DNA from: Candidatus Giovannonibacteria bacterium RIFOXYD1_FULL_48_21
Lineage (GTDB): Bacteria; Patescibacteriota; Minisyncoccia; JACPKW01; UBA11713
NCBI GenBank assembly: GCA_001778985.1
Contig: MFIU01000001.1
Coordinates: 190,934 to 254,933, forward strand
Direction: 5' to 3'
Length of the DNA stretch: 64,000 bases
A model generated the notes under the pieces. It saw only the letters and a list, made by a program, of their open reading frames with translations. It was not told where the DNA came from and ran no database searches. A program made the translations under genes and the position numbers. The first letter of the stretch is position 1. Each line of letters opens with the position of its first letter. This document shows, piece after piece, positions 17,709 to 34,292 of this stretch.

Positions 17709-19568
17709 ATGAAGCTTATTTCAAAGAATATCATTGTAGCTTTTCTTATTTTGATGCTCCTGGCCGGGGCGTATTCGGTTTTGCAGGAAAACCTCCGCTC
17801 CCAGGACGAATTATCCCTTTCCGAACTCGTCAAAAAGATTAACGCCGGCGAGGTTGGGAGCATTGTCGTCAGGGGAGACGAGCTTGAGGTAACCTTGAAA
17901 AACGACGCGGTTTTCCTTGCTAAAAAGGAAGCCGAGAGTTCGCTTTCTGAAACCTTGGCCAACTACAGCGTTTCCAAAGAAGCGCTGGGCCAGGTTTCAG
18001 TTGAAGTAAAAAATCCCTCGGGCTTTTTATTCTGGCTCGCGGCCCTCCTGCCGTTTCTGCTTCCGTTTCTGCTGATCGCGCTTTTTTTCTGGCTAGCGGC
18101 CCGGCAGGTACAGAGGGCGAATATTCAAGCTTTCACCTTCGGGCAATCCAGAGCCCGCGTGGTTCAGCCTGATTCCAAAAAAGAAAGGGTTACTTTTCGG
18201 GACGTGGCCGGAGTTAAAGAAGCCAAAGAAGAGCTCGTTGAGATTGTGGAATTTCTGCGCGCCCCAAAGAAATTTTTAGATATCGGCGCCAGGATTCCCA
18301 AAGGGGTTTTATTGATGGGAGCTCCGGGCACGGGAAAAACGCTTTTAGCGCGAGCGGTGGCGGGGGAGGCCAACGTTCCGTTCTTTCATATCTCGGGTTC
18401 TGAATTCGTGGAGATGTTCGTGGGAGTCGGGGCTTCGCGAGTCCGCGATTTGTTCAAAATGGCTAAGCGCTCCGCGCCGGCGATTGTATTCATCGATGAG
18501 ATTGACGCGGTCGGGCGTCATCGCGGCGCGGGACTTGGCGGCGGACATGACGAGCGGGAGCAGACCTTGAACCAAATTCTGGTTGAGATGGACGGCTTTG
18601 AGCCGCACGAGTCCGTGATTGTGATGGCTGGCACCAATCGTCCGGATGTTCTGGACCCCGCGCTTCTGCGTCCCGGAAGATTTGACCGCAGGGTGATTCT
18701 CGACCTTCCGGATATTAACGACCGCGAAGAGATTTTAAAACTTCACGCTTTGAAAAAACCTTTAGGCAAGGAAATAAGCCTTAGGCTCATTGCCGAGCGC
18801 ACCCCGGGTTTTTCCGGAGCGGATTTGGCGAACTTGATGAATGAGGCCGCGATTCTGGCGGCGAGAGAAAACCGGAAAACAGTAAGCCAGCTGGATTTAA
18901 CCCGCTCTATCGAGAAAGTCCTCCTGGGTCCTGAGCGGAAAAGCCACATCCTTTCGCAGAAAGAAAAAGAAATTTCAGCTTATCACGAGGCCGGGCACGC
19001 CCTGGTGGCCGCAGTTTTACCTAATGCTGACCCCGTCCACAAAATTACAATTGTGGCCCGCGGCCGGGCGGCCGGCTACACTCTGAAACTTCCCTCTGAA
19101 GACCGCCATCTCTACTCTCGGCCGAATTTTTTGGATGAGCTGGCCGCCGCGCTCGGCGGTTACGCTTCGGAGAAACTGGTTTTCGGAGAACTTACCACCG
19201 GCTCGGCCGATGATATTCGCAAGGCCACAATGATTGTGCGGGATTTGGTAACAAGATACGGCATGTCTGAGAAAATCGGGCCCATAACCCTCGGCGAGAG
19301 AGATGAACTTGTGTTTCTGGGTAAGGAGCTCGGAATCGAGAAAAATTATTCCGAAGAAACGGGCCGGCTGATTGATTCTGAAATGAAGCGCTTCATGAAA
19401 AACGCGTTTTCGCGCGCCCTGGGAATCTTGAGAAAATACCGAAAGGTGCTCAACGCTCTCGCCGGACGTTTGATTGAAAACGAGACCATCGAGCGCGAGG
19501 AGTTCGAAGCGATTTTGAGCTCTTTCGGTCTGAAGCAAATCCTGCTCGCGCCTGTAGCTCAACGGTAG
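17709..19568 (+). CDS. ftsH: ATP-dependent zinc metalloprotease FtsH
   Basis: Two TM segments, [29 protein letters not shown]. Confidence 0.97.
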
Positions 19569-19622
19569 AGCACGGAGCTTATACCTCCGCGGTTCTAGGT
19601 TCAAATCCTAGCAGGCGCACCA
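19548..19622 (+). tRNA. tRNA-Ile(UAU)
   Basis: GCGCCTG/CAGGCGC acceptor, anticodon arm CGGAG-CTTATAC-CTCCG, GGTTCAAATCC, A-CCA end; overlaps the ftsH 3' end. Confidence 0.92.
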
Positions 19623-20859: not shown

Positions 20860-22422
20860 ATGGCCTACCCCTATCTCCACTTGGCGCATGCGCCGGAATT
20901 GAAAGGAAAAGACTGGATAATTTTTAGGTTTCTAGAAATTTTTCCCGGAGGAATCGCGTGGCTGACGCTTGTGGGGATGGTTTTAGTTTCGTGGCTCGCT
21001 CCGGTCGCGGGGGCGATTTTTATAATTCTTTTTGATTTATATTGGCTTATAAAAACCATCTATCTTTCAATTCATCTTCGCGGAAATTGGAAGAGATTGC
21101 GGCATAATTTAAAGATTGATTGGAAAGAGCGCGTCCAAAAATTATGCTGGGAGCACGTCTGGCAGGTGGTCATTCTGCCCTTTTATAAAGAGTCTTATGA
21201 AGTGATAGAAAGTTCATTCCAAGCTCTCGTTAAATCAGATTGGCCCAAAGAGCGGATGATTTTAGTTCTGGCCAGGGAAGAGAAAGGAGGCGAGGGAACG
21301 CGCGAGACAATTTGGAAAATCCGCGAAAAATACAAAAATCAGTTTCCGCATTTTCTGGAAACCAAACATCCCGTAAACCTCGAAGGCGAGATTCCCGGCA
21401 AAGGCTCCAATGCCGCTTGGGCCGGACGCGAAGTAAAAAAATATATTGATAAACTCAATGTTCCTTACGGCGATATTCTTGTTTCGTCCCTGGATATCGA
21501 CACCCAGGTTCCTGAGCAATATTTTTTGGTCTTGGCCTATCATTTTCTGACGGTGGAAAATCCGCATCGGACCGCTTACCAGCCGGTTCCGGTCTACAAC
21601 AATAATATTTGGGAAGCGCCATCTTTCTCGCGCGTGGTCGCGAACTCCGGAACTTTCTGGCAAATGATGCAGCAGGAGCGTCCGGAAAGGCTGGCAACTT
21701 TCTCTTCGCACTCCATGAGTTTTAAGGCGCTCGTCGAGCTCGATTTTTGGCAGAGAAACATGGTTTCCGAAGATTCAAGAATTTTCTGGCAGGGATTTCT
21801 CTATTATAAAGGCGATTACAAATCTCAACCTATCGCTTATCCGGTCTGGATGGACGCGCCCATTGGCAGAAATCTCTGGGAAACCGCGCAAAGTGTCTAT
21901 AAACAGCAGAGGCGCTGGGCCTGGGGCGTGGAGAATTTTCCGTACACTCTTTTCGGATTTTTGAAAATTCCTGAAATTCCCTTGCGAAAAAAACTTTATT
22001 TCACCCTGATTATGTTTGAGGGGCTTTGGTCTTGGTCCACGAACGCGATTTTGATGTTTTTCTTGGGCTGGCTTCCTTTGATTCTTGGGGGCGAAGCTTT
22101 TAACTCAACTATTCTCTCCTACAATCTGCCGCGCGCGACGAGACTGATTATGACCTTAGCCATGGTCGGGATTATAACTTCCATCGTAATTTCGACTTCG
22201 CTTCTGCCGCCCCGTCCGGAGAAGACGCCTCGCCGAAAATATCTTTACATGATTTTGCAGTGGCTTTTGATGCCCGTGACTCTAATTTTCTTCGGCGCGA
22301 TTCCGGCGCTCGACGCCCAAACCCGCTTAATGCTCGGCAAGTACATGGGTTTCTGGGTGACGCCTAAATATAGAAAGACTCCGGAGTTTATTCGAAATGA
22401 AGCGATGCGGACTGCGCGCTGA
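20860..22422 (+). CDS. Membrane-bound family 2 glycosyltransferase (processive-type)
   Basis: ILPFYKE, GKGSNA, DID, SED, QQRRWAWG motifs with flanking TMs; ATG 20860 lies just after a TATAAT. Confidence 0.85.
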   Translation: MAYPYLHLAHAPELKGKDWIIFRFLEIFPGGIAWLTLVGMVLVSWLAPVAGAIFIILFDLYWLIKTIYLSIHLRGNWKRLRHNLKIDWKERVQKLCWEHVWQVVILPFYKESYEVIESSFQALVKSDWPKERMILVLAREEKGGEGTRETIWKIREKYKNQFPHFLETKHPVNLEGEIPGKGSNAAWAGREVKKYIDKLNVPYGDILVSSLDIDTQVPEQYFLVLAYHFLTVENPHRTAYQPVPVYNNNIWEAPSFSRVVANSGTFWQMMQQERPERLATFSSHSMSFKALVELDFWQRNMVSEDSRIFWQGFLYYKGDYKSQPIAYPVWMDAPIGRNLWETAQSVYKQQRRWAWGVENFPYTLFGFLKIPEIPLRKKLYFTLIMFEGLWSWSTNAILMFFLGWLPLILGGEAFNSTILSYNLPRATRLIMTLAMVGIITSIVISTSLLPPRPEKTPRRKYLYMILQWLLMPVTLIFFGAIPALDAQTRLMLGKYMGFWVTPKYRKTPEFIRNEAMRTAR

Positions 22423-24535
22423 CGCGCCGTGCCAACTCGGGATATTTTTGAATCGAATTCGCTTCAATTATTTTCCTGGCTTCTTCTCTGGCGGCTTCCA
22501 CCATTTTGATATTTTTTAAAGCTTCCATGCCGACGTCAGAGATGCCCCATTGTTTTTGGCCGGTTAGTTCGCCTGGGCCGCGAAGCTCTAGGTCATATTC
22601 CGCAAGCTCGAATCCGGACTTGGCTTCCAAAAGCGCTTGAAGCCGCGCCTTTGTTTTTTGCGAATTTGATTCCGTGAACAAGAAGCAATAGGGCTGATGT
22701 TCCGAGCGCATCACGCGTCCCCGAAGCTGGTGCAGTTGCGCGAGACCGAAGCGTTCGGCGCCTTCAATCAAAATAATTGTTGCGTTCGGGACATCCACGC
22801 CGACCTCGATGACGGAAGTCGCCACCAAAAGCTGGATTTTTCCCTCCCGAAATTCTTTCATTATTTTTTCTTTTTCTTTGGGTTTGAGCTTTCCGTGGAG
22901 CATCGCGACCTTAAACTCCGGGAAAATATTTTCCGAAAGAGTTTTATATTCTTTTTTTACGGCGCGCATCTCTGGAAGTCCGACTTCCCGGAGAAGTCGG
23001 ACTTCCTCGGATTCAATCCGCGGGCAGAGAACGTAGGCCTGGCGCCCGAATGAAATTTTTTTCCGGACGTGCTCGTAGGCATGTTTTCGTTTCTCGGGGG
23101 CGATAATCTCGGTAATTATTTTTTTTCTTCCAGCTGGCATCTCGTCCAAAAGCGTTAAATCCAAATCTCCGTAAATTGTAAGCGCCAAAGTTCGAGGGAT
23201 TGGGGTCGCAGTCATGGACAAAAGATGGGGAATCTGCCCGCCGGCAGGCAGGTTTTCTTCGTGACCTTTTTGCGTCAATTTCAAGCGCTGATTTATGCCA
23301 AAGCGATGCTGTTCGTCCACGATCACCAGCGCCAGTTTTTTGAATTTTATTTTTTCCTGAATCAAAGAATGGGTGCCGATTAAAATTTGAATCTCACCCG
23401 ATGCTAACCATTTCAAGAGGGGAGCGCGCGCAATGTGAGTCGGTTTCCCGGCGAAAGCTTTGGAGGGATATTTTAAAAATTCTGAAGAGGTAGCCAAGCC
23501 TATTTTTATATTCAACTGCTTAAAACGGCGGATGAATTCTTCAAAATGCTGGCGCGCCAAAACCTCGGTCGGCGCCATGTAGGCCACCTGAAAATTGTTC
23601 TGGACGGCGGCAAAACTCGCCACGGCCGCGACCGCGGTTTTTCCGGAACCGACATCTCCTTCCAAGAGTCTGGACATCGGCTTCGCTCGGCCCAGATCTT
23701 CGAGAATATGTTCGCTGGCTCGTTTTTGGGCGCCGGTCAGTTCGAAAGGGAAGGCTTTTACGAAATCTTTAATTTTTTCCGGCTCAATGGCTATCTGATA
23801 CGAAGGATGTTCATCGCGTTTTTTGCGCCAGGCTTGCCGGATTAGCTGGATTATGAAAATTTCTTCAAAGGCGAAGCGCTTTCTGGCGGCCTCGGCCCAT
23901 TTCAAATTCCGCGGGAAGTGAATTTCTTTTATGGCCGATTTTAAGGAGGGGAGATTGTATTTTTTTAAAATTTCTTCCGGAATGGAGTCTTTTAGGGAAG
24001 TCGGACTTCCACTTGGAAGTCCGACTTCCAAGTGGTCCAAAATTCGTTTTATTGCAAAGCGGAGCCAGCGCGAAGTGAGGCCCCGCGTCTCCGGGTAAAT
24101 TGGTACAAGTATTCCAGACTCATTCGCGGTTATCTCTCCTGCTTCAAACACGGGATTCATCATGGAAAGCCCGTTTTTATCTCGTTTTATGGTTCCAGTG
24201 AAAGTGTAGTCGGTATTGGGTTTTAAGATATTAACCATATATGGCTGGTTGAACCAGACAATTTTTAAAGAGCCGGTGCCGTCAGAAATCAAAGTCTGGG
24301 CAAGGCTGATTTTTTTGCGAAAGGTTTTTTTGGCTTCGGTTTTAATCACACGGCCGTGCACCGAGGCCCGTTCGCCCGCGACTAAATCCGCGACAGCTTT
24401 TCTGCCGGCAAACCCTTCGTATCTTACGGGAAAATGCCACAATAAATCACGGACTATTTGGAGTCCGAACTTTTTTAAAATTAGAATTTGTCTCTCGGTC
24501 AGGCGAAAATAATTCGAGAGCGGGGAGTCGAGCAT
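22388..24535 (-). CDS. recG: ATP-dependent DNA helicase RecG
   Basis: GDVGSGKT, DEQHRFG, TATPIPRTL, QLHQLRGRV, DLELRGPGE. Confidence 0.97.
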   Translation of the reverse strand: MLDSPLSNYFRLTERQILILKKFGLQIVRDLLWHFPVRYEGFAGRKAVADLVAGERASVHGRVIKTEAKKTFRKKISLAQTLISDGTGSLKIVWFNQPYMVNILKPNTDYTFTGTIKRDKNGLSMMNPVFEAGEITANESGILVPIYPETRGLTSRWLRFAIKRILDHLEVGLPSGSPTSLKDSIPEEILKKYNLPSLKSAIKEIHFPRNLKWAEAARKRFAFEEIFIIQLIRQAWRKKRDEHPSYQIAIEPEKIKDFVKAFPFELTGAQKRASEHILEDLGRAKPMSRLLEGDVGSGKTAVAAVASFAAVQNNFQVAYMAPTEVLARQHFEEFIRRFKQLNIKIGLATSSEFLKYPSKAFAGKPTHIARAPLLKWLASGEIQILIGTHSLIQEKIKFKKLALVIVDEQHRFGINQRLKLTQKGHEENLPAGGQIPHLLSMTATPIPRTLALTIYGDLDLTLLDEMPAGRKKIITEIIAPEKRKHAYEHVRKKISFGRQAYVLCPRIESEEVRLLREVGLPEMRAVKKEYKTLSENIFPEFKVAMLHGKLKPKEKEKIMKEFREGKIQLLVATSVIEVGVDVPNATIILIEGAERFGLAQLHQLRGRVMRSEHQPYCFLFTESNSQKTKARLQALLEAKSGFELAEYDLELRGPGELTGQKQWGISDVGMEALKNIKMVEAAREEARKIIEANSIQKYPELARRVSAQSASLHFE
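22974..23006. repeat. REP-like doublet inside recG
   Basis: GGAAGTCCGACTTCC-CGG-AGAAGTCGGACTTCC; translated in frame as EVRLLREVGLP. Confidence 0.88.
23996..24035. repeat. REP-like doublet inside recG
   Basis: GGAAGTCGGACTTCC-ACTT-GGAAGTCCGACTTCC; translated in frame as EVGLPSGSPTS. Confidence 0.88.
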
Positions 24536-26209: not shown

Positions 26210-26833
26210 CTATCCTAATCGTTGTTGATCGTTTAATGTAATAAGCTTCCAAGCATCCATTTCTTTTTCGCATAATGTCAGCGAGGTATTGTTGAGAAGG
26301 GTGAAATAAAAAAAGTTTCTAAAAATCTCATAGGATAGCTGATCGTCGAGCATCATGGTCGCAATAACCATTTTTATAAGATATTCATGAGATACCGCCA
26401 AAATATTTTTGGCAGGAAGCTCGGAAACGTATTTTATAAAAAGTTTGGCACGTTTTTTTATATCAAGAAAGTTTTCTTCATCGCTGTAATGCCAATTCGG
26501 ATCGGTATTATTTCTCTCTTTTAGTAGATCGAAAACTTTTTCAACTTCCGGATCTTTTAATAATTTGCCCTCGATTTCACTCGGCCACTTCTTTTCTCCC
26601 AGAAGAGTGGTTTCTTGAACGTCTTTATTAATTTTCCTAGCAATTATTTCTGCGGTTTCTTTTGTTCGCTTATGCGGACTGGCGATCATTACGTCAATTG
26701 AAACATGGGCGATTCGCTCGGCTAGTTCCTGGGCTTGCTTGCGTCCCAGTTCGGTTAGTTGGTCATTAAAACTTACTACGCTTTTTTGTAGATTGCTATT
26801 TGTTTCTCCGTGGCGCACAAAATATAGTTTCAT
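26210..26833 (-). CDS. Histidine phosphatase family protein
   Basis: YFVRHGET, SPHKRTKETA, VSH. Confidence 0.9.
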   Translation of the reverse strand: MKLYFVRHGETNSNLQKSVVSFNDQLTELGRKQAQELAERIAHVSIDVMIASPHKRTKETAEIIARKINKDVQETTLLGEKKWPSEIEGKLLKDPEVEKVFDLLKERNNTDPNWHYSDEENFLDIKKRAKLFIKYVSELPAKNILAVSHEYLIKMVIATMMLDDQLSYEIFRNFFYFTLLNNTSLTLCEKEMDAWKLITLNDQQRLG

Positions 26834-26889
26834 AAGATTTATTATTCGATTTTAACAGTTTTCGGTCCCTCGATAAAAAATGCTGTCTG

Positions 26890-26976
26890 CGGTAGGGGTG
26901 AGATTCGAACTCACGGTGCCATTTCTGACACAGCAGTTTTCAAGACTGCCGCCTTAAACCACTCGGCCACCCTACC
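26890..26976 (-). tRNA. tRNA-Ser(UGA)
   Basis: GGTAGGG/CCCTACC acceptor, GCAGT-CTTGAAA-ACTGC, long variable arm, GTTCGAATC. Confidence 0.96.
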
Positions 26977-26977
26977 G

Positions 26978-27235
26978 TTACTCTTTTAACGAGTCTGTTA
27001 ATCTCGATAATAAATGTCTTTTTTCGGTATATTTTTCTTTCAATTCTTTTTCTCTTTTGAAAGCATCATATTTACTTGTAAATGCTTCGTAATATATAAG
27101 CTTCCAAGGCCTCCCCCTTTTAGTTGAACTTACGCCTCCACTGTTATGTTCTACTAATCTTTTTTTGAGATCACCGGTACAACCTATATATTTTGTACCT
27201 GTGATACTGCTTTTAAGGAGATAGACGTAATGCAT
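26978..27235 (-). CDS. Small GIY-YIG nuclease
   Basis: YVYLLKS..KYIGCTGDLKKRLVEHNSG..WKLIYYEAF..AFKREKELK; stop is 1 nt before the tRNA. Confidence 0.92.
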   Translation of the reverse strand: MHYVYLLKSSITGTKYIGCTGDLKKRLVEHNSGGVSSTKRGRPWKLIYYEAFTSKYDAFKREKELKEKYTEKRHLLSRLTDSLKE

Positions 27236-27238
27236 TTT

Positions 27239-27293
27239 ATTCAACCACTCCCTCGGCCGTAGCCCGGCCTACGGGCGAGGCTGCCACCCCACC
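27239..27293 (-). pseudogene. Displaced 5' end of a tRNA-Ser interrupted by a 31-nt hairpin
   Basis: Removing 27251-27281 leaves GGTGGGGTGGCAGAGTGGTTGAAT, versus GGTAGGGTGGCCGAGTGGTTTAAG in the intact tRNA. Confidence 0.82.
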
Positions 27294-27294
27294 T

Positions 27295-27531
27295 TCATCG
27301 GCCGTATTTTTTTAGGCGGTAAGCGTCCGAGTGGTCTATCAGGTTTTCTTTATCGGCTCTGTCTATTATTTTGTTTAGCTCTTTTTTTGACAAACCAGAT
27401 GGTCGCAAAGTTTCTGGCTTGGCCATCTTAAAAAGCTCTTTCTTTTCTTTTGGGCCTAACTTCAATCCCTTGACTAAACCCTTAAGTTCTTTACTTGATT
27501 TGATATGACTTTTTTCGTCAAACAGTCCCAT
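27295..27531 (-). CDS. Small basic hypothetical protein
   Basis: 78-aa Lys-rich ORF. Confidence 0.65.
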   Translation of the reverse strand: MGLFDEKSHIKSSKELKGLVKGLKLGPKEKKELFKMAKPETLRPSGLSKKELNKIIDRADKENLIDHSDAYRLKKYGR

Positions 27532-27544
27532 GTTGTTATTTTAG

Positions 27545-27802
27545 TTATTTCTTAATAAAAGGCAATCGGATTAATTTCTTAAAGGCCTCTCCAGATTTAT
27601 AAGATTTGATCTCGATCTCTCTTTTTCTGGCAGACGTTTTGTCGGTCATGAATTCTTTATAAATTAGTTGCCACTGGCGGTAAGCTTTTGTGGAACGAAC
27701 CTTCCCAGCATTGTGAGACCTTAGTCTTTTATCCAGGTTTCCCGTGTATCCAATGTAGTGGCGCTGGAAATTTATACTTTTTAGGATATAGACCTCATAC
27801 AT
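27545..27802 (-). CDS. Small GIY-YIG nuclease
   Basis: VYILKS..HYIGYTGNLDKRLRSHNAG.VRSTKAYR.W...ARKREIEIKSYKSG. Confidence 0.92.
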   Translation of the reverse strand: MYEVYILKSINFQRHYIGYTGNLDKRLRSHNAGKVRSTKAYRQWQLIYKEFMTDKTSARKREIEIKSYKSGEAFKKLIRLPFIKK

Positions 27803-27874
27803 TTTTTAAGTATTTTCCCCGCTTGCTACTTTAAATATTTTAATCAAGGTAAGCGGGGTCACGCCTTCCGTGAA

Positions 27875-28351
27875 TTATTTTTTATTATTGTTCAGGCGTG
27901 AATCCACCATTTTAATTTCTTCGTCAATGCCGTCTATCAATTCGTAATTTTGAACTTCGTCGGAGCCTATCCAGGCATGGTCAATACTTTCGGGGTTTAA
28001 CGTAACCTCTCCGGATTTGAACGGCGCGTAAAAGCTCAAAGTCACAACGGGAGTTTTGTCGGGACGAATGAAAGTCATATCCAAGAGATAATCTATCTTT
28101 CCGACTTCTAATCCGACTTCCTCTTTAAGCTCTCTGCGAAGCGTCTTCTCCAGAGCGTTATACCAAACGCCGTGCTCATTGGCCTTTTCGCCTGCGTAAT
28201 CGTCCACCGTCATCCCGCCTCCGGGCACGGTCCAGAAACCCGGCCAGGCTTTTTTGTTTAAGGCGCGGCGCGTGATTAAAAACTTGCTATCTTTATGTAT
28301 GATGCAAGTCGCGACGATGCGATGCAGTTCTTTGTTGTTCGGAAGTTCCAT
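27875..28351 (-). CDS. NUDIX hydrolase
   Basis: WTVPGG...LRRELKEEVGL Nudix box. Confidence 0.88.
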   Translation of the reverse strand: MELPNNKELHRIVATCIIHKDSKFLITRRALNKKAWPGFWTVPGGGMTVDDYAGEKANEHGVWYNALEKTLRRELKEEVGLEVGKIDYLLDMTFIRPDKTPVVTLSFYAPFKSGEVTLNPESIDHAWIGSDEVQNYELIDGIDEEIKMVDSRLNNNKK

Positions 28352-28767: not shown

Positions 28768-28886
28768 TGGCTCGCCCGCTACCTGCCCGTCCGGCAGGCG
28801 GGCGCGGGCTCGCCAGCCCTGCCTGCGGCAGGCAGGCGTTTTTCGGGGAAATTTTCCGCCATAGGCGGATCTGCCTATGGCATGAC
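28768..28886. repeat. Cluster of nested GC-rich mini-hairpins
   Basis: CCTGCCCGTCCGGCAGGCGGG nested in TGGCTCGCCCGC..GCGGGCTCGCCA; CCTGCCTGCGGCAGGCAGG; TCCGCCATAGGCGGA; TCTGCCTATGGCATGA. Confidence 0.85.
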
Positions 28887-31023: not shown

Positions 31024-31056
31024 GCCGGTTCGTTTTACGAACCGGCTTTCTTTTTT
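31024..31056 (+). terminator. Rho-independent terminator
   Basis: GCCGGTTCGT-TTT-ACGAACCGGC followed by a T-tract, between convergent genes. Confidence 0.8.
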
Positions 31057-31711
31057 ATCCTCTCGCTACCACCAGACCGATGACCGCTTTGGCTCCGGAG
31101 GATTTTAGAACGCGCGCCGCTTCGGAAAGCGTGGCGCCGGTGGTAGAGATGTCGTCCACCAAAAGCACGGTTTTGTTTTTGACGCGTTCCGGAAACTTTA
31201 CCCCGAAGGAATCGTAAACGTTCAAGACTCTTTCCCGGCCGGAGAGCGCGGTCTGCGAGGGCGTGGCTTTTATTTTTTTCAGAAGGCCGGCGTCAAAGGG
31301 GATTTTCGTTTCGGCGGACAATTTTTCCGCGAGAAGCGCGGCTTGGTTGTAGCCGCGGTCCAATTCTTTTCTGAGATGGAGGGGAATGGGCAGTATTACG
31401 GTTTTTTCAGAAAAAGAAGAAAGATAGGGCTTTATCAAATCATGAAGAATCTTGGTAAGGGGACTCGCGAGCCCGTAAGTGCCGTGGTATTTGAAGCGGC
31501 GAAGTGCCTCTCTTAAAATTTTATCCTCGTATGAACCCCAGCTGAAAAGCCGGTCCAAAAAGGGCAGGGAAGATTTTTCTCTGAAATTTTTTCTAGATTT
31601 CGCCAGGCAGTTTTTGCACAAGAGTTCGCCTTCCTGGCGGCAGCCCAAGCAGCGTTGGGGGAATAAAACCTCGAGGAATCTATTTAAAACCGTGTGGATA
31701 AGCCGCCGCAT
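31055..31711 (-). CDS. comF: ComF family phosphoribosyltransferase-like competence protein
   Basis: CxxC zinc finger, FKY.G, RGYNQA, LLVDDISTTGATL. Confidence 0.93.
   Translation of the reverse strand: MRRLIHTVLNRFLEVLFPQRCLGCRQEGELLCKNCLAKSRKNFREKSSLPFLDRLFSWGSYEDKILREALRRFKYHGTYGLASPLTKILHDLIKPYLSSFSEKTVILPIPLHLRKELDRGYNQAALLAEKLSAETKIPFDAGLLKKIKATPSQTALSGRERVLNVYDSFGVKFPERVKNKTVLLVDDISTTGATLSEAARVLKSSGAKAVIGLVVARG
31693..31701 (-). promoter_or_regulatory. Consensus DnaA box
   Basis: TTATCCACA on the minus strand, about 50 nt before pilM. Confidence 0.5.
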
Positions 31712-31751
31712 ATGTTATTATTATGATATAATATAAAGGAAGCTCTAGGGC

Positions 31752-32873
31752 ATGGATTTACCTTTGTTTAAAAAGTACAGCGAAAAGGGATTAGCTCTTT
31801 TCAAAAGACAGACGAGCGTCGTCGGCATTGATTTGGGTTCGTCGAGCCTGAAGATTGTTCAGCTTCGCAAGGAGAAAGAGCGAGCAGTACTCGAAACCTA
31901 CGGCGAGATTTCCACCGGACCTTACGCTGGTTCGCCCGTGGGAAAAAGCGTGCGTCTCTTGGACAAGAAAGTTGTGGAGATGCTGACGGACTTGCTCCGC
32001 GAGGCCAATGCCAAGGCCGTCCAAGCCGTGGTTTCCATTCCGCTCCGTTCGAGTTTCATCCGAATGATTTCGATGCCTCTGATGTCCGAGAAAGAGCTGG
32101 CGGAAGCCATCCCCTTCGAGGCCAGAAAATATATTCCGGTTCCGGCCAGCGAAGTGGTCATCGACTGGTGGCTTTTGCCGGAAGGGATAAGCTCCGAAGG
32201 AAAAGACAGCGAAGGCTTTATCAAAGAGCGGAAGTTTGCGGAAGTCTTGCTGGTGGCGATTCACCGCGAAGCCATCGAGAAATATAAGCGCATTTTTCAG
32301 GAAGCTAAGCTCGAAGTGAATTCTTTTGAAATCGAAGTTTTCAGCCAAGTGCGCTCGATTCTTGGCCGCGAGATTCAGCCGGTTTTGATGGTGGATTTCG
32401 GCGCGCAGGCTACCCGGTTCGTGGTGGTGGATTACGGCATCGTGCGCTTGGCGCACACCGTGGAGCGCGGTTCTCTGGAGCTGACCGACGCCCTCTCGCG
32501 TTCTCTGGGGGTGGATTTCGAAAGAGCCGAGCGCTTAAAACAGGACATCGGTTTCTCGCCGCGGCCGGAGCATAAAGAGACCGCGAACGTGATTGAGCCG
32601 CTCTTGGACCATATTTTTTCGGAAGGGCTGAGAGTGGTGACAGAATATCACCGCCGTTCCGAGCGGCCGATTAAAAAAGTTTGGCTCACTGGAGGCGGCT
32701 CGCTCTTGAAGGGACTGGTTGATTTTTCCATAAACAAGTTTGGACTCGAGGCCAGGCTCGCCGAACCGTTTTCAAAAACCGAATATCCGGCCTTTTTGGA
32801 AGAAAATTTGAAAGAGATCGGACCGATTTTCGCCACGGCCCTGGGAAGTGCGCTTAGAGCTTTGCAAGAATAG
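31752..32873 (+). CDS. pilM: Type IV pilus assembly protein PilM
   Basis: GIDLGSSSLKIVQL, EARKYIP, VDFGA, LTGGGS (actin-like fold). Confidence 0.92.
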   Translation: MDLPLFKKYSEKGLALFKRQTSVVGIDLGSSSLKIVQLRKEKERAVLETYGEISTGPYAGSPVGKSVRLLDKKVVEMLTDLLREANAKAVQAVVSIPLRSSFIRMISMPLMSEKELAEAIPFEARKYIPVPASEVVIDWWLLPEGISSEGKDSEGFIKERKFAEVLLVAIHREAIEKYKRIFQEAKLEVNSFEIEVFSQVRSILGREIQPVLMVDFGAQATRFVVVDYGIVRLAHTVERGSLELTDALSRSLGVDFERAERLKQDIGFSPRPEHKETANVIEPLLDHIFSEGLRVVTEYHRRSERPIKKVWLTGGGSLLKGLVDFSINKFGLEARLAEPFSKTEYPAFLEENLKEIGPIFATALGSALRALQE

Positions 32874-32890
32874 ATTAAAATTTAATTATC

Positions 32891-33439
32891 ATGGCAGAAC
32901 CATCCTTTATACCAAAAAGTCTTCCCCAACGCCTCGCCCAAGCGCGGGAACCCTTGGGAACTTTTCTGTTTTTGGGAGTTTTGGTTTTCGTGATTTCGCT
33001 TTTGGCGCTCGGCGGCTTATTTTTCTACGAGCGCTTGCTTTCCAGCCAGATTACGGACCTCGTAAAATCGCTGGAGCGTCTGAAGGCCGACTTTGACGCG
33101 GACTCCATAAACGAACTCGCCCGCGTTTCAGAGTCAATCCAGACCGCCCAAGAGGTCCTGTTCAGTCACCGCCGCGTTTCCAACGTGTTCATGCTTCTGG
33201 AGTCAAGCACCCTGCCGGAGGTCAGGTTTTCAAAGTTTTCTTTCGACGCGGCTTCCAACCAGCTTACCCTCGCGGCCGAAGCCAAAAGTTACACGGCCCT
33301 CGCCCACCAGACCGAAATTTTTAAGAAATCCTCCGGCGTATCAAAAACATCTTTGTCGAGTTTTTCCCTGACTCCTGCCGGAGGCGTTGATTATGAGGTC
33401 GACCTTACTTTTAATCCCGCTTTGGTTCTCGCACGCTGA
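32891..33439 (+). CDS. PilN-like protein
   Basis: SFIPK N-terminus, TM, coiled coil; position after pilM. Confidence 0.75.
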   Translation: MAEPSFIPKSLPQRLAQAREPLGTFLFLGVLVFVISLLALGGLFFYERLLSSQITDLVKSLERLKADFDADSINELARVSESIQTAQEVLFSHRRVSNVFMLLESSTLPEVRFSKFSFDAASNQLTLAAEAKSYTALAHQTEIFKKSSGVSKTSLSSFSLTPAGGVDYEVDLTFNPALVLAR

Positions 33440-33987
33440 TGGGACGGAATTTTTTAGGCCTGGTTCTGATTGTGGCGGCGGCCGGGGTGAGCGCTTTCTG
33501 GGCTTATCCCTTATGGCTGGAGGTAGGCGAATTGGGCGGGACGAAAGAGGAGCTGACTCGAACCGTGAACCAAGTTAAAGACTTGGCGCGTCGGCGGGAC
33601 GATCTTTTGGCCAGTTACAATTCCATTCCCCGCCAGGATTTGGAAAGTTTGGAAGAATTTTTTCCGAGCAGTCCGGAGGCCGGACTGCTCTTGGTTAACC
33701 TCGAGAGTCTCGCCCGGGGCTCGGGGCTTTTGCTCAAAACCATCGCCGTGAGCGAAGGCGGAGAGCTTCAAGTTCAGCCGGCGGACCAGCCCCAGGAGAA
33801 AGTTTCGAGCTTGCCTTTTCAGATTTCAGTTTCCGGTTCGTACGCCGCTTTTCGTTCTTTTCTGGCCGCCTTGGAGTCTTCGCGCCGCCTTATTGAGCTC
33901 GACCAAATTTCCTTCGACTCCGGCAAGGCCGGAACAAAAGAGTCTTACGAGTTTACGATTCAGGCTCACACTTATTGGAGAAAATAA
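33439..33987 (+). CDS. pilO: PilO-like protein
   Basis: TM, coiled coil, SGSYAAFRSFLAALESSRRLI. Confidence 0.82.
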   Translation: MGRNFLGLVLIVAAAGVSAFWAYPLWLEVGELGGTKEELTRTVNQVKDLARRRDDLLASYNSIPRQDLESLEEFFPSSPEAGLLLVNLESLARGSGLLLKTIAVSEGGELQVQPADQPQEKVSSLPFQISVSGSYAAFRSFLAALESSRRLIELDQISFDSGKAGTKESYEFTIQAHTYWRK

Positions 33988-33992
33988 ATGGC

Positions 33993-34292
33993 ATGGGTAT
34001 TTCCAAACAAAACATTCTTACCGTAATCCTGTTTTTGGCTTTGTTCGGCATCGCCTATATTTGGTACACTTCTTTCTTTTCCAAGCCTCAGGAGGAAGAG
34101 GAAAGTCAGTCCACTCCAGCCGCAACACTTTCAACCCCCGATGAATTTCTCGCACTTTTGTTTCTTTTGGAACAGACAAAAATCGACCTGGAATTTTTTC
34201 AGAGCGAGAGTTTTAAAGAACTTAAGGGCGGGATTAAGCTGCCGCCTCTGCCAGCCGAGCGGGGACGGGTAAATCCTTTCGCACCTTTTTAA
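33993..34292 (+). CDS. Small pilus-associated protein (PilP-like N-terminal motif)
   Basis: TM plus C-terminal GRVNPFAPF. Confidence 0.65.
   Translation: MGISKQNILTVILFLALFGIAYIWYTSFFSKPQEEEESQSTPAATLSTPDEFLALLFLLEQTKIDLEFFQSESFKELKGGIKLPPLPAERGRVNPFAPF

Follow-up and report, generated by a model that had tools for sequence, protein, structure and literature searches.

Among the described systems that come closest to the locus studied here is Ssn (Chenal et al. 2025), a single-domain GIY-YIG nuclease of about 90 aa flanked by a 20-50-nt hairpin (NTS) that is also found free in many copies (PMC11893778). SsnA is a hairpin-binding enzyme that introduces nicks into single-stranded DNA immediately 5′ of its own hairpin. 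The NTS-ssnA-NTS arrangement is compared by the authors with a mobile element and with REP/RAYT (PMC11893778). The words 'tRNA', 'Patescibacteria' and 'CPR' do not occur in the main text of that paper, which, as far as it goes, reports no target gene and no passenger tRNA and does not show mobility. Short palindromes that lie free or in frame and are tied to a small enzyme gene are also known from REPtrons (RAYT and REP) and in-frame RPEs; according to the main text, in which 'GIY-YIG' does not occur, the REPtron enzyme is an HUH tyrosine transposase without tRNA cargo (PMC3733652). The free-standing GIY-YIG enzyme SegB of T4 is encoded between tRNA genes, spreads its own gene together with neighbouring tRNA genes and makes double-strand cuts at a 27-bp site with a T-loop motif; the abstract mentions neither a split fragment left behind nor a cognate hairpin (PMC2330249). 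When a mORF of fungal mitochondria inserts, its endonuclease gene lands in an essential gene together with a foreign substitute for the displaced part, and the native piece is left stranded. The source describes protein genes as targets, replacement of the C-terminal part and long LAGLIDADG or GIY-YIG homing enzymes, and its passages on these elements mention no hairpin (PMC3630166). Finally, GIY-YIG ORFs that lie outside introns have been found in the rRNA genes of CPR bacteria, where they do not look homing-spread according to the authors. The main text deals with rRNA only, gives no mechanism and does not contain 'tRNA' or 'hairpin' (PMC11270868). We found no description of GIY-YIG/hairpin elements in bacterial tRNA genes in a literature search with incomplete coverage of subscription journals and supplements.

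The window analysed here is a stretch of 64,000 nucleotides from the 714-kb genome of a Candidatus Giovannonibacteria bacterium. A first-pass annotation of its letters had described, on the minus strand, a tRNA-like fragment, a 31-nt hairpin, a second piece of the fragment, AAA-ATG of a GIY-YIG gene and an intact tRNA-Ser. All of these parts were present in this order, as listed below from 5′ to 3′ on the minus strand.

27295..27531, minus strand: 78-aa host gene, family unassigned, synteny anchor (tblastn to relatives)
27282..27293, minus strand: look-alike of tRNA-Ser nt 1-12 (10/12 to the resident tRNA, 12/12 to the allele of syntenic relatives)
27251..27281, minus strand: 31-nt imperfect palindrome with a hairpin fold, between tRNA nt 12 and 13
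27239..27250, minus strand: look-alike of tRNA-Ser nt 13-24 (D loop), 3′ of the hairpin and 5′ of the AAA-ATG
26978..27235, minus strand: single-domain GIY-YIG nuclease gene, 85 aa, ATG at 27235 and TAA ending at 26978 (Pfam PF01541)
26889..26976, minus strand: intact tRNA-Ser(UGA) (ARAGORN and Rfam)
26868..26888, minus strand: short T-rich tRNA 3′ flank, decayed in the window (by eye in L002, L013 and L294)

The first tRNA piece begins 1 nt past the stop codon of the 78-aa gene (end 27295), for which a Pfam search gave no match. The hairpin insert measures 31 nt, that is, the 30 letters given in the first-pass annotation plus one leading G. The second tRNA piece is followed by AAA and then by the ATG of the 85-aa ORF, and, as had been stated, a single nucleotide separates the TAA of this ORF (26978) from the start of the tRNA (26976). 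Altogether the extra sequence ahead of tRNA-Ser(UGA) amounts to 317 nt with the GIY-YIG gene as its sole ORF, and the tRNA at 26976-26889 is the sole Ser(UGA) among 45 tRNA calls in the genome. An intron or a split tRNA was ruled out: only tRNA was found above the Rfam threshold in 26500-28000, and the downstream gene is complete. The locus is thus also unlike a self-splicing tRNA intron (group I/II). Integrase-made tRNA islands (attL/attR) usually displace the tRNA 3′ end, and unlike such islands the 317-nt insert has no integrase ORF. In a promoter scan, a candidate match to the consensus was obtained within the upstream 78-aa gene, with its end at 27365. Between this gene and a NUDIX gene lies a second small GIY-YIG gene (27545-27802, minus strand; PF01541, E 3e-14) with a long-loop inverted repeat upstream and no adjoining tRNA; it was not found at the syntenic site in the relatives G004, G007 and G008. 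We also observed a GC-rich palindrome cluster at 28770-28880 (plus strand), immediately past tRNA-Ser(GCU), and a tRNA-Ile with anticodon UAU at 19548-19622 (plus strand), a tRNA that is rare among bacteria and was called in G004, G005 and G007 as well.

Over their 24 positions, the two fragment pieces together share 20 letters with the resident tRNA and 21 with the allele of the syntenic relatives. When the whole genome was searched with the 24-mer (one gap, at most four mismatches), the only matches were the fragment, the resident tRNA and tRNA-Ser(GCU). With twelve shuffled versions of the query the yield was 0.5 hits per genome, or about 1.4e-4 per 400 nt. The fragment is therefore far more tRNA-like than random sequence, and its likeness to the tRNA-Ser 5′ end is far beyond chance. 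The tRNA, the ORF and the hairpin were reproduced in contigs of four out of four runs, one of them possibly the source sample and all possibly from one campaign. As these contigs agree letter for letter, the locus is not an assembly artefact. The listed joints of the four runs, whose contigs drop rare forms, included no empty allele and no circle junction. A joint of 26976 and 28005 in one contig has a side of only 26 nt and is probably from another organism. Neither a second hairpin nor an old tRNA 3′ half was found at the tRNA-Ser(UGA) locus of the window.

The 85-aa protein matches Pfam GIY-YIG (E 1e-16) over residues 1-71. Residues Y5, Y16, R26, H30 and E62 are present and are invariant in its three closest homologues (alignment A1). 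The structure model (pLDDT 85.6) consists of one domain, a bare GIY-YIG core, with UPF0213 BH0048, HIGLE and Slx1 as the nearest solved folds, and a DNA-binding region behind this domain is absent. The homing-endonuclease model TIGR01453 reached 19.3 bits compared to a cut-off of 56, and aligned to residues 3-32 only. The sequence looks nearer to the SLX1-like bacterial subfamily cd10449 than to cd10448, and membership in cd10448 is doubtful. As had been proposed, the nuclease differs from the one at tRNA-Leu of the same genome (36% identity over 66 aa) and the hairpin belongs to another family than those at tRNA-Leu, with which its longest common word is 5 nt. At 85 aa the nuclease is, like Ssn, a single-domain GIY-YIG protein below 150 aa, and by position its Y5, Y16 and E62 would be equivalent to the catalytic Y6, Y17 and E64 of SsnA. 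The NTS pattern had no match in the window at up to three mismatches, and an unrelated hairpin occupies the analogous place.

This 31-nt insert (27281-27251) folds at -9.8 kcal/mol with DNA parameters. Hairpins of the same family are found at the same tRNA position beside the two closest nucleases, and the hairpin of L068, a locus from another assembly, is letter-identical to that of the window. Exact two-arm matches occurred in 4 of the 301 genomes of the class, and the own genome contains one further, diverged copy (C2). Metagenomes yielded 101 matches across 96 loci, preceded by a G in 99/101 and followed by one in 97/100. For 88 of the 101, no GIY-YIG gene was present in the locus (up to 700 nt on each side). 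The cognate palindrome is thus dispersed without its enzyme, as in REPtrons, but GTAG, the tetranucleotide that marks the repeat end in REPtrons, lies in the loop-proximal part of the stem and not at either end of the 27-31-nt unit. In a set of 74 distinct free copies, a long stop-free frame was seen in 35 of the 47 with a unit length that is a multiple of three and in 1 of the 27 with other lengths, which sets the unit at 27 nt plus one flanking G and demonstrates that copies reside in frame in genes. In this respect the hairpin is an RPE-like repeat. Judged from its copies, the hairpin is a mobile mini-palindrome in its own right, with a usual free form of 27 nt. In the window (27251..27281) it likely represents the left end of the element and, by analogy with Ssn, the putative recognition site of the nuclease. 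A search of viral contigs with the hairpin as the only query gave no exact match, and a viral vehicle for the element was dropped as a candidate. At L057, around position 701, a hairpin of the window type is nested within an NTS-like palindrome (Ssn-type family), and nested hairpins were also seen at L017. An ORF at 22388-24535 of the window (minus strand), presumably RecG-like, has short insert-like peptides in its translation that may come from in-frame palindromes.

For comparison with the same family, tRNA-Ser(UGA) was located in six of nine genomes (G001, G004, G005, G006, G007 and G008), and none of the six has a fragment or a nuclease ahead of it. In G004, G006, G007 and G008, which represent two genera, a homologue of the 78-aa gene (49-61% identity, tblastn) is directly followed by tRNA-Ser(UGA), without fragment, hairpin or nuclease. 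Aligning the orthologous tRNA-Ser loci, as the first-pass annotation had advised, thus revealed an empty site in four syntenic relatives. Both observations that would have spoken against the first-pass annotation failed to appear: the fragment exceeds random sequence in its likeness to the tRNA, and relatives without the nuclease lack it. The alleles at this empty site differ mutually at 2 of 88 positions, and nt 1-12 of the fragment match them at 12/12. The intact tRNA of the window, on the other hand, is 77-80% identical to the alleles of the syntenic relatives (68/88 for G007) and at best 80% within the family, compared to 90-93% for alleles of other families. Its best matches among the 301 class genomes, in four other families, equal it at 82, 80, 79 and 79 of 88 positions, and G140 reached 91% by BLAST. 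The differences from the relatives are spread over the whole length and include the compensated pairs 4:83 and 12:24. Fragment and intact tRNA differ at four positions, at three of which (nt 4, 12 and 24) the fragment has the state of the relatives.

Because the fragment fits the relatives' allele and the intact copy fits other families, 27282..27293 is likely a leftover of the old host allele at its original place, and the intact tRNA-Ser(UGA) is likely an imported replacement that was delivered with the element. The first-pass annotation had seen in the fragment a diverged allele of the 5′ end of the tRNA; its tRNA origin was confirmed, and the comparison refines the roles, in that the fragment more probably stems from the old host allele, with the intact gene as the later arrival. 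The assignment of the fragment to the old host rests on few letters, because the nearest foreign alleles differ from its first 12 nt at nt 12 only (11/12 equal). The piece after the hairpin (nt 13-24) equals the resident tRNA at 10/12 and the relatives' allele at 9/12, and could be of either host or element origin. In the fetched loci of the five best matches to the intact allele no nuclease was present, and the sixth has one of another kind. The T-rich 3′ flank (26868..26888) is shared with tRNA-Ser genes from G007 and from two further families. This occurrence outside the family ruled it out as an indicator of orthology or of a native 3′ end.

The genome of the window (G000) contains ten small GIY-YIG genes, six of which end at or inside a same-strand tRNA and one more of which starts just past tRNA-Phe. 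The pool of homologues was assembled from the best 30 of 49 loci in the 301 class genomes, 96 hairpin-selected metagenome loci, the best 80 of 271 genome loci and eight own loci. It comprised 130 distinct proteins, of which 51 have a same-strand tRNA right downstream, and its hairpin-selected part is biased towards the fragment-hairpin-nuclease pattern. Compared with shuffles, an upstream tRNA fragment was significant in 30 of these 51 at p ≤0.01 (36/51 at 0.05). The first-pass annotation had argued for a general mechanism rather than an accident, and the recurrence both in the own genome (6/10) and among the homologues (30/51) supports this. The full order of fragment, hairpin, fragment and ATG could be parsed in 35 of 62 tRNA-abutting loci, a set that was extended by loci of three relatives. 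The distance from hairpin to ATG had a median of 17 nt, with 23/35 within 9-20 nt (searched to 40 nt; some splits wrong), and it was short regardless of whether the hairpin was at tRNA nt 5, 12 or around 35. Several automatic fragment splits were wrong (L023, L039 and the Leu locus), and a test on mismatch counts before and after the hairpin was dropped, as the piece after the hairpin had been extended greedily. The allele of the intact copy differs from the fragment in the window and is identical to it in 13 of the 35 parsed loci, so that often nothing foreign was delivered. At one locus of G006 the tRNA duplicate is exact (24/24).

It had also been suggested to compare a tree of the nucleases with tRNA identity and hairpin family. 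In a quick, weakly resolved tree (128 of 130 rows, 86 columns), the window nuclease and three others formed a clade of four (SH-aLRT 94). All four lie directly ahead of a tRNA-Ser, twice UGA and twice GCU, one of the latter cut by the contig end. The window hairpin family is found at nt 12/13 in three of them, and the fourth, L148, lacks both a hairpin and a fragment. The tRNA partners of other clades are Glu/Asp, Cys, Trp, Gln or Ser/Tyr, and their hairpins are mostly their own. The hairpin family is not one-to-one with clade or tRNA and mostly stands alone. One hairpin family per nuclease clade was ruled out: the window family also occurs beside the tRNA-Gln clade and another Ser nuclease (L068) and spans at least three nuclease lineages, and the pairing of hairpin and nuclease is therefore not exclusive. 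Many homologues lie away from tRNAs and are bounded by inverted repeats. Two close paralogues in the own genome (G000 C2:123.9-124.3 kb and C2:210.4-210.9 kb) have 14-nt inverted repeats at their bounds, with an ATGAA on the upstream side and the start of the following gene downstream; they represent a tRNA-free, IS-like sub-type. When flanks were inspected by eye, homologues with inverted repeats were apparently located inside rRNA-like genes (L022, L033, L159, L194 and L199) and within RNase P RNA-like genes (L156 and L157). The element is widespread and is related to the known hairpin-associated small GIY-YIG nucleases.

Complete forms with two hairpins were found at other loci. L037 consists of an old tRNA-Trp 5′ half, a hairpin, a nuclease gene, a different complete tRNA-Trp, the same hairpin and the old 3′ half. 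At tRNA-Glu(CUC) of the own genome (G000 C2:59.4-60.0 kb), old halves that pair with each other enclose a nuclease gene and a different whole tRNA. An orphan T arm was present downstream in 10 of the 51 tRNA-abutting loci, and a 12-mer common to both flanks in 8/51. In G007, tRNA-Ser(CGA) shows the order hairpin, nuclease, foreign allele, hairpin, and G000, G004 and G005 have another, common allele. The fragment at tRNA-Leu(CAG) of G004 equals the allele that is still used by its congener G007, while the intact gene is of another type. A Trp element and its allele (93%) are common to G000 and G007, and G004 has neither. As minor observations in the own genome, the nuclease ORF at tRNA-Trp (C3:4.1-4.5 kb) runs into the tRNA and the fragment comes from another allele, and tRNA-Tyr (C3:6.5-6.9 kb) has a double hairpin after nt 13.

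Turnover of tRNA alleles was seen throughout the family, with or without a nuclease. Between the congeners G004 and G007, 17 of 39 common isoacceptors are less than 85% identical and 12 are at least 95% identical. Where both flanks are syntenic, 5 of 10 tRNAs fall below 85%, one of them Met-CAU, for which three tRNA kinds are confusable. In a genome-wide test of G000 against three relatives, nuclease-adjacent tRNAs (mean identity 0.80, n=6) showed no greater divergence than the remaining ones (0.78, n=39; p 0.68), the baseline of this test itself being bimodal. The tRNA-Arg(CCG) genes of G004 and G007 are 66% identical between flanks of 82-86%, with no scar visible.

A foreign intact allele as a replacement for the displaced part of the target, as with SegB and mORFs, was found at L037, G007 Ser(CGA), G004 Leu(CAG) and in the window, where delivery with the element is deduced. 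Compared to the mORFs, the target in the window is a bacterial tRNA gene, the 5′ piece is stranded, the whole gene is replaced, and an 85-aa enzyme is accompanied by a hairpin. Unlike the SegB loci as described in the abstract, a split fragment and a cognate hairpin are present. The rRNA insertions of CPR bacteria (PMC11270868) occur in the same lineage and probably encode the same protein family; we saw homologues apparently in 16S/23S genes at L022, L033 and L159. By analogy, the element would resemble Ssn/NTS or RAYT/REP pairs in its action, mORFs in its handling of cargo and SegB in the class of its target. We did not file it as Ssn, REPtron or modular homing endonuclease, because it has no NTS, no HUH enzyme (the insert encodes a GIY-YIG protein only) and no modular DNA-binding region.

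That this stretch is the footprint of a mobile element of some kind is close to certain. The reading we favour, and consider probable, is that of a minimal, Ssn-like mobile element that combines a hairpin and a single-domain GIY-YIG nuclease with tRNA-Ser as a passenger, and that swaps tRNA alleles. It builds on the anatomy, the empty syntenic site, the allele relations, the recurring layout, the two-hairpin forms and the free hairpins. The element would have entered the host's own tRNA-Ser(UGA) at nt 12/13, leaving the first 12 nt in place and replacing the remainder by its own copy. Cleavage and mobility are putative and modelled on SsnA: the nuclease may recognise the cognate hairpin when the DNA is single-stranded and place a nick a few nt to its 5′ side, and this nick would join the left end of the element into the tRNA gene. 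The right end would be resolved at a second hairpin at other loci and here by homologous recombination through the tRNA 3′ end or its flank, which would delete the 3′ part of the old tRNA. Insertion into a single-copy essential gene would be survivable because the element carries a working copy of the tRNA, and it would place the nuclease gene within a tRNA transcript. As non-autonomous passengers, the free hairpins could then depend on these enzymes, as REPs do on RAYTs. More tentatively, and with odds slightly below even, the locus may represent an undescribed class without transposase or integrase, in which an 85-aa GIY-YIG putative nickase and its cognate hairpin capture a whole tRNA gene, enter a host tRNA gene of matching amino-acid identity and thereby swap alleles between distant lineages.

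Other explanations were weighed against this. A free-standing homing endonuclease could have made a double-strand cut in an uninterrupted tRNA-Ser, with donor repair copying in the nuclease and a cut-resistant allele and the hairpin arriving later in the dead fragment. The GIY-YIG fold, the foreign whole-gene tRNA copy and the precedents of SegB (PMC2330249) and mORFs (PMC3630166), as far as these sources describe them, speak for such a course, and hairpins do insert independently, several of them gathering in dead fragments at tRNA-Leu. However, the enzyme of 85 aa has no separate DNA-binding domain and scores far below the homing-endonuclease cut-off (19 vs 56 bits), and the kept copy equals the fragment in 13/35 loci and so is not resistant within that stretch. 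Since the hairpin occupies one position per clade at a near-fixed distance to the ATG, its later random arrival is disfavoured as well, and we regard homing of this kind as unlikely. A local duplication without cargo, in which a hairpin-nuclease unit entered a tRNA whose allele was already the present one and made a second copy of the initial 12-24 nt, would leave a fragment that drifted afterwards, and the foreign look would stem from an earlier, unrelated replacement. Exact duplicates are indeed common (13/35, and 24/24 in G006), tRNA alleles turn over family-wide regardless of a nuclease, and over the first 12 nt of the fragment the nearest foreign alleles share 11 letters with it. Three of the four differing positions (nt 4, 12 and 24) nevertheless show the relatives' state, and little drift is expected, because the hairpin is letter-identical in another assembly and the ORF is intact. 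Moreover, delivery of cargo is directly visible at L037, G007 Ser(CGA) and G004 Leu(CAG). We regard a cargo-free duplication as unlikely here.

A chance resemblance or a misassembly beside a house-keeping repair nuclease of the YhbQ/UPF0213 type, for which the nearest solved structure (UPF0213 BH0048) could be quoted, is extremely improbable. The shuffle expectation is 1.4e-4 per 400 nt, the 714-kb genome has ten paralogues of which six abut tRNAs, syntenic relatives lack the nuclease, and contigs of four runs reproduce the locus. Empty sites, shuffle null and contigs have already refuted this reading.

tRNA genes are usually taken as a slow-evolving, vertically inherited core, but at this locus they seem to be overwritten in situ by an element of 300-400 bases. 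If the more tentative reading of an undescribed class is true, its action over evolutionary time would explain why orthologous tRNAs of two congeneric Patescibacteria are identical or only 55-80% alike at one locus, and its enzymes would supply the mobilisers so far missing for the in-frame palindromes in Patescibacteria proteins. The element would also suggest what the small GIY-YIG genes, which are very abundant in this group, are for, and it would offer a candidate mobiliser for hairpin repeats without a known transposase. It would further provide a large set of natural nuclease-hairpin pairs, each clade having its own hairpin and site, that can be tested together with oligonucleotides and may widen the toolbox of Ssn single-strand-specific nucleases. 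In the window, ORFs whose translations resemble ComF and PilM/N/O were observed at 31055-34292 (plus strand); if these are competence genes, they would provide single-stranded DNA as an entry route for the element.
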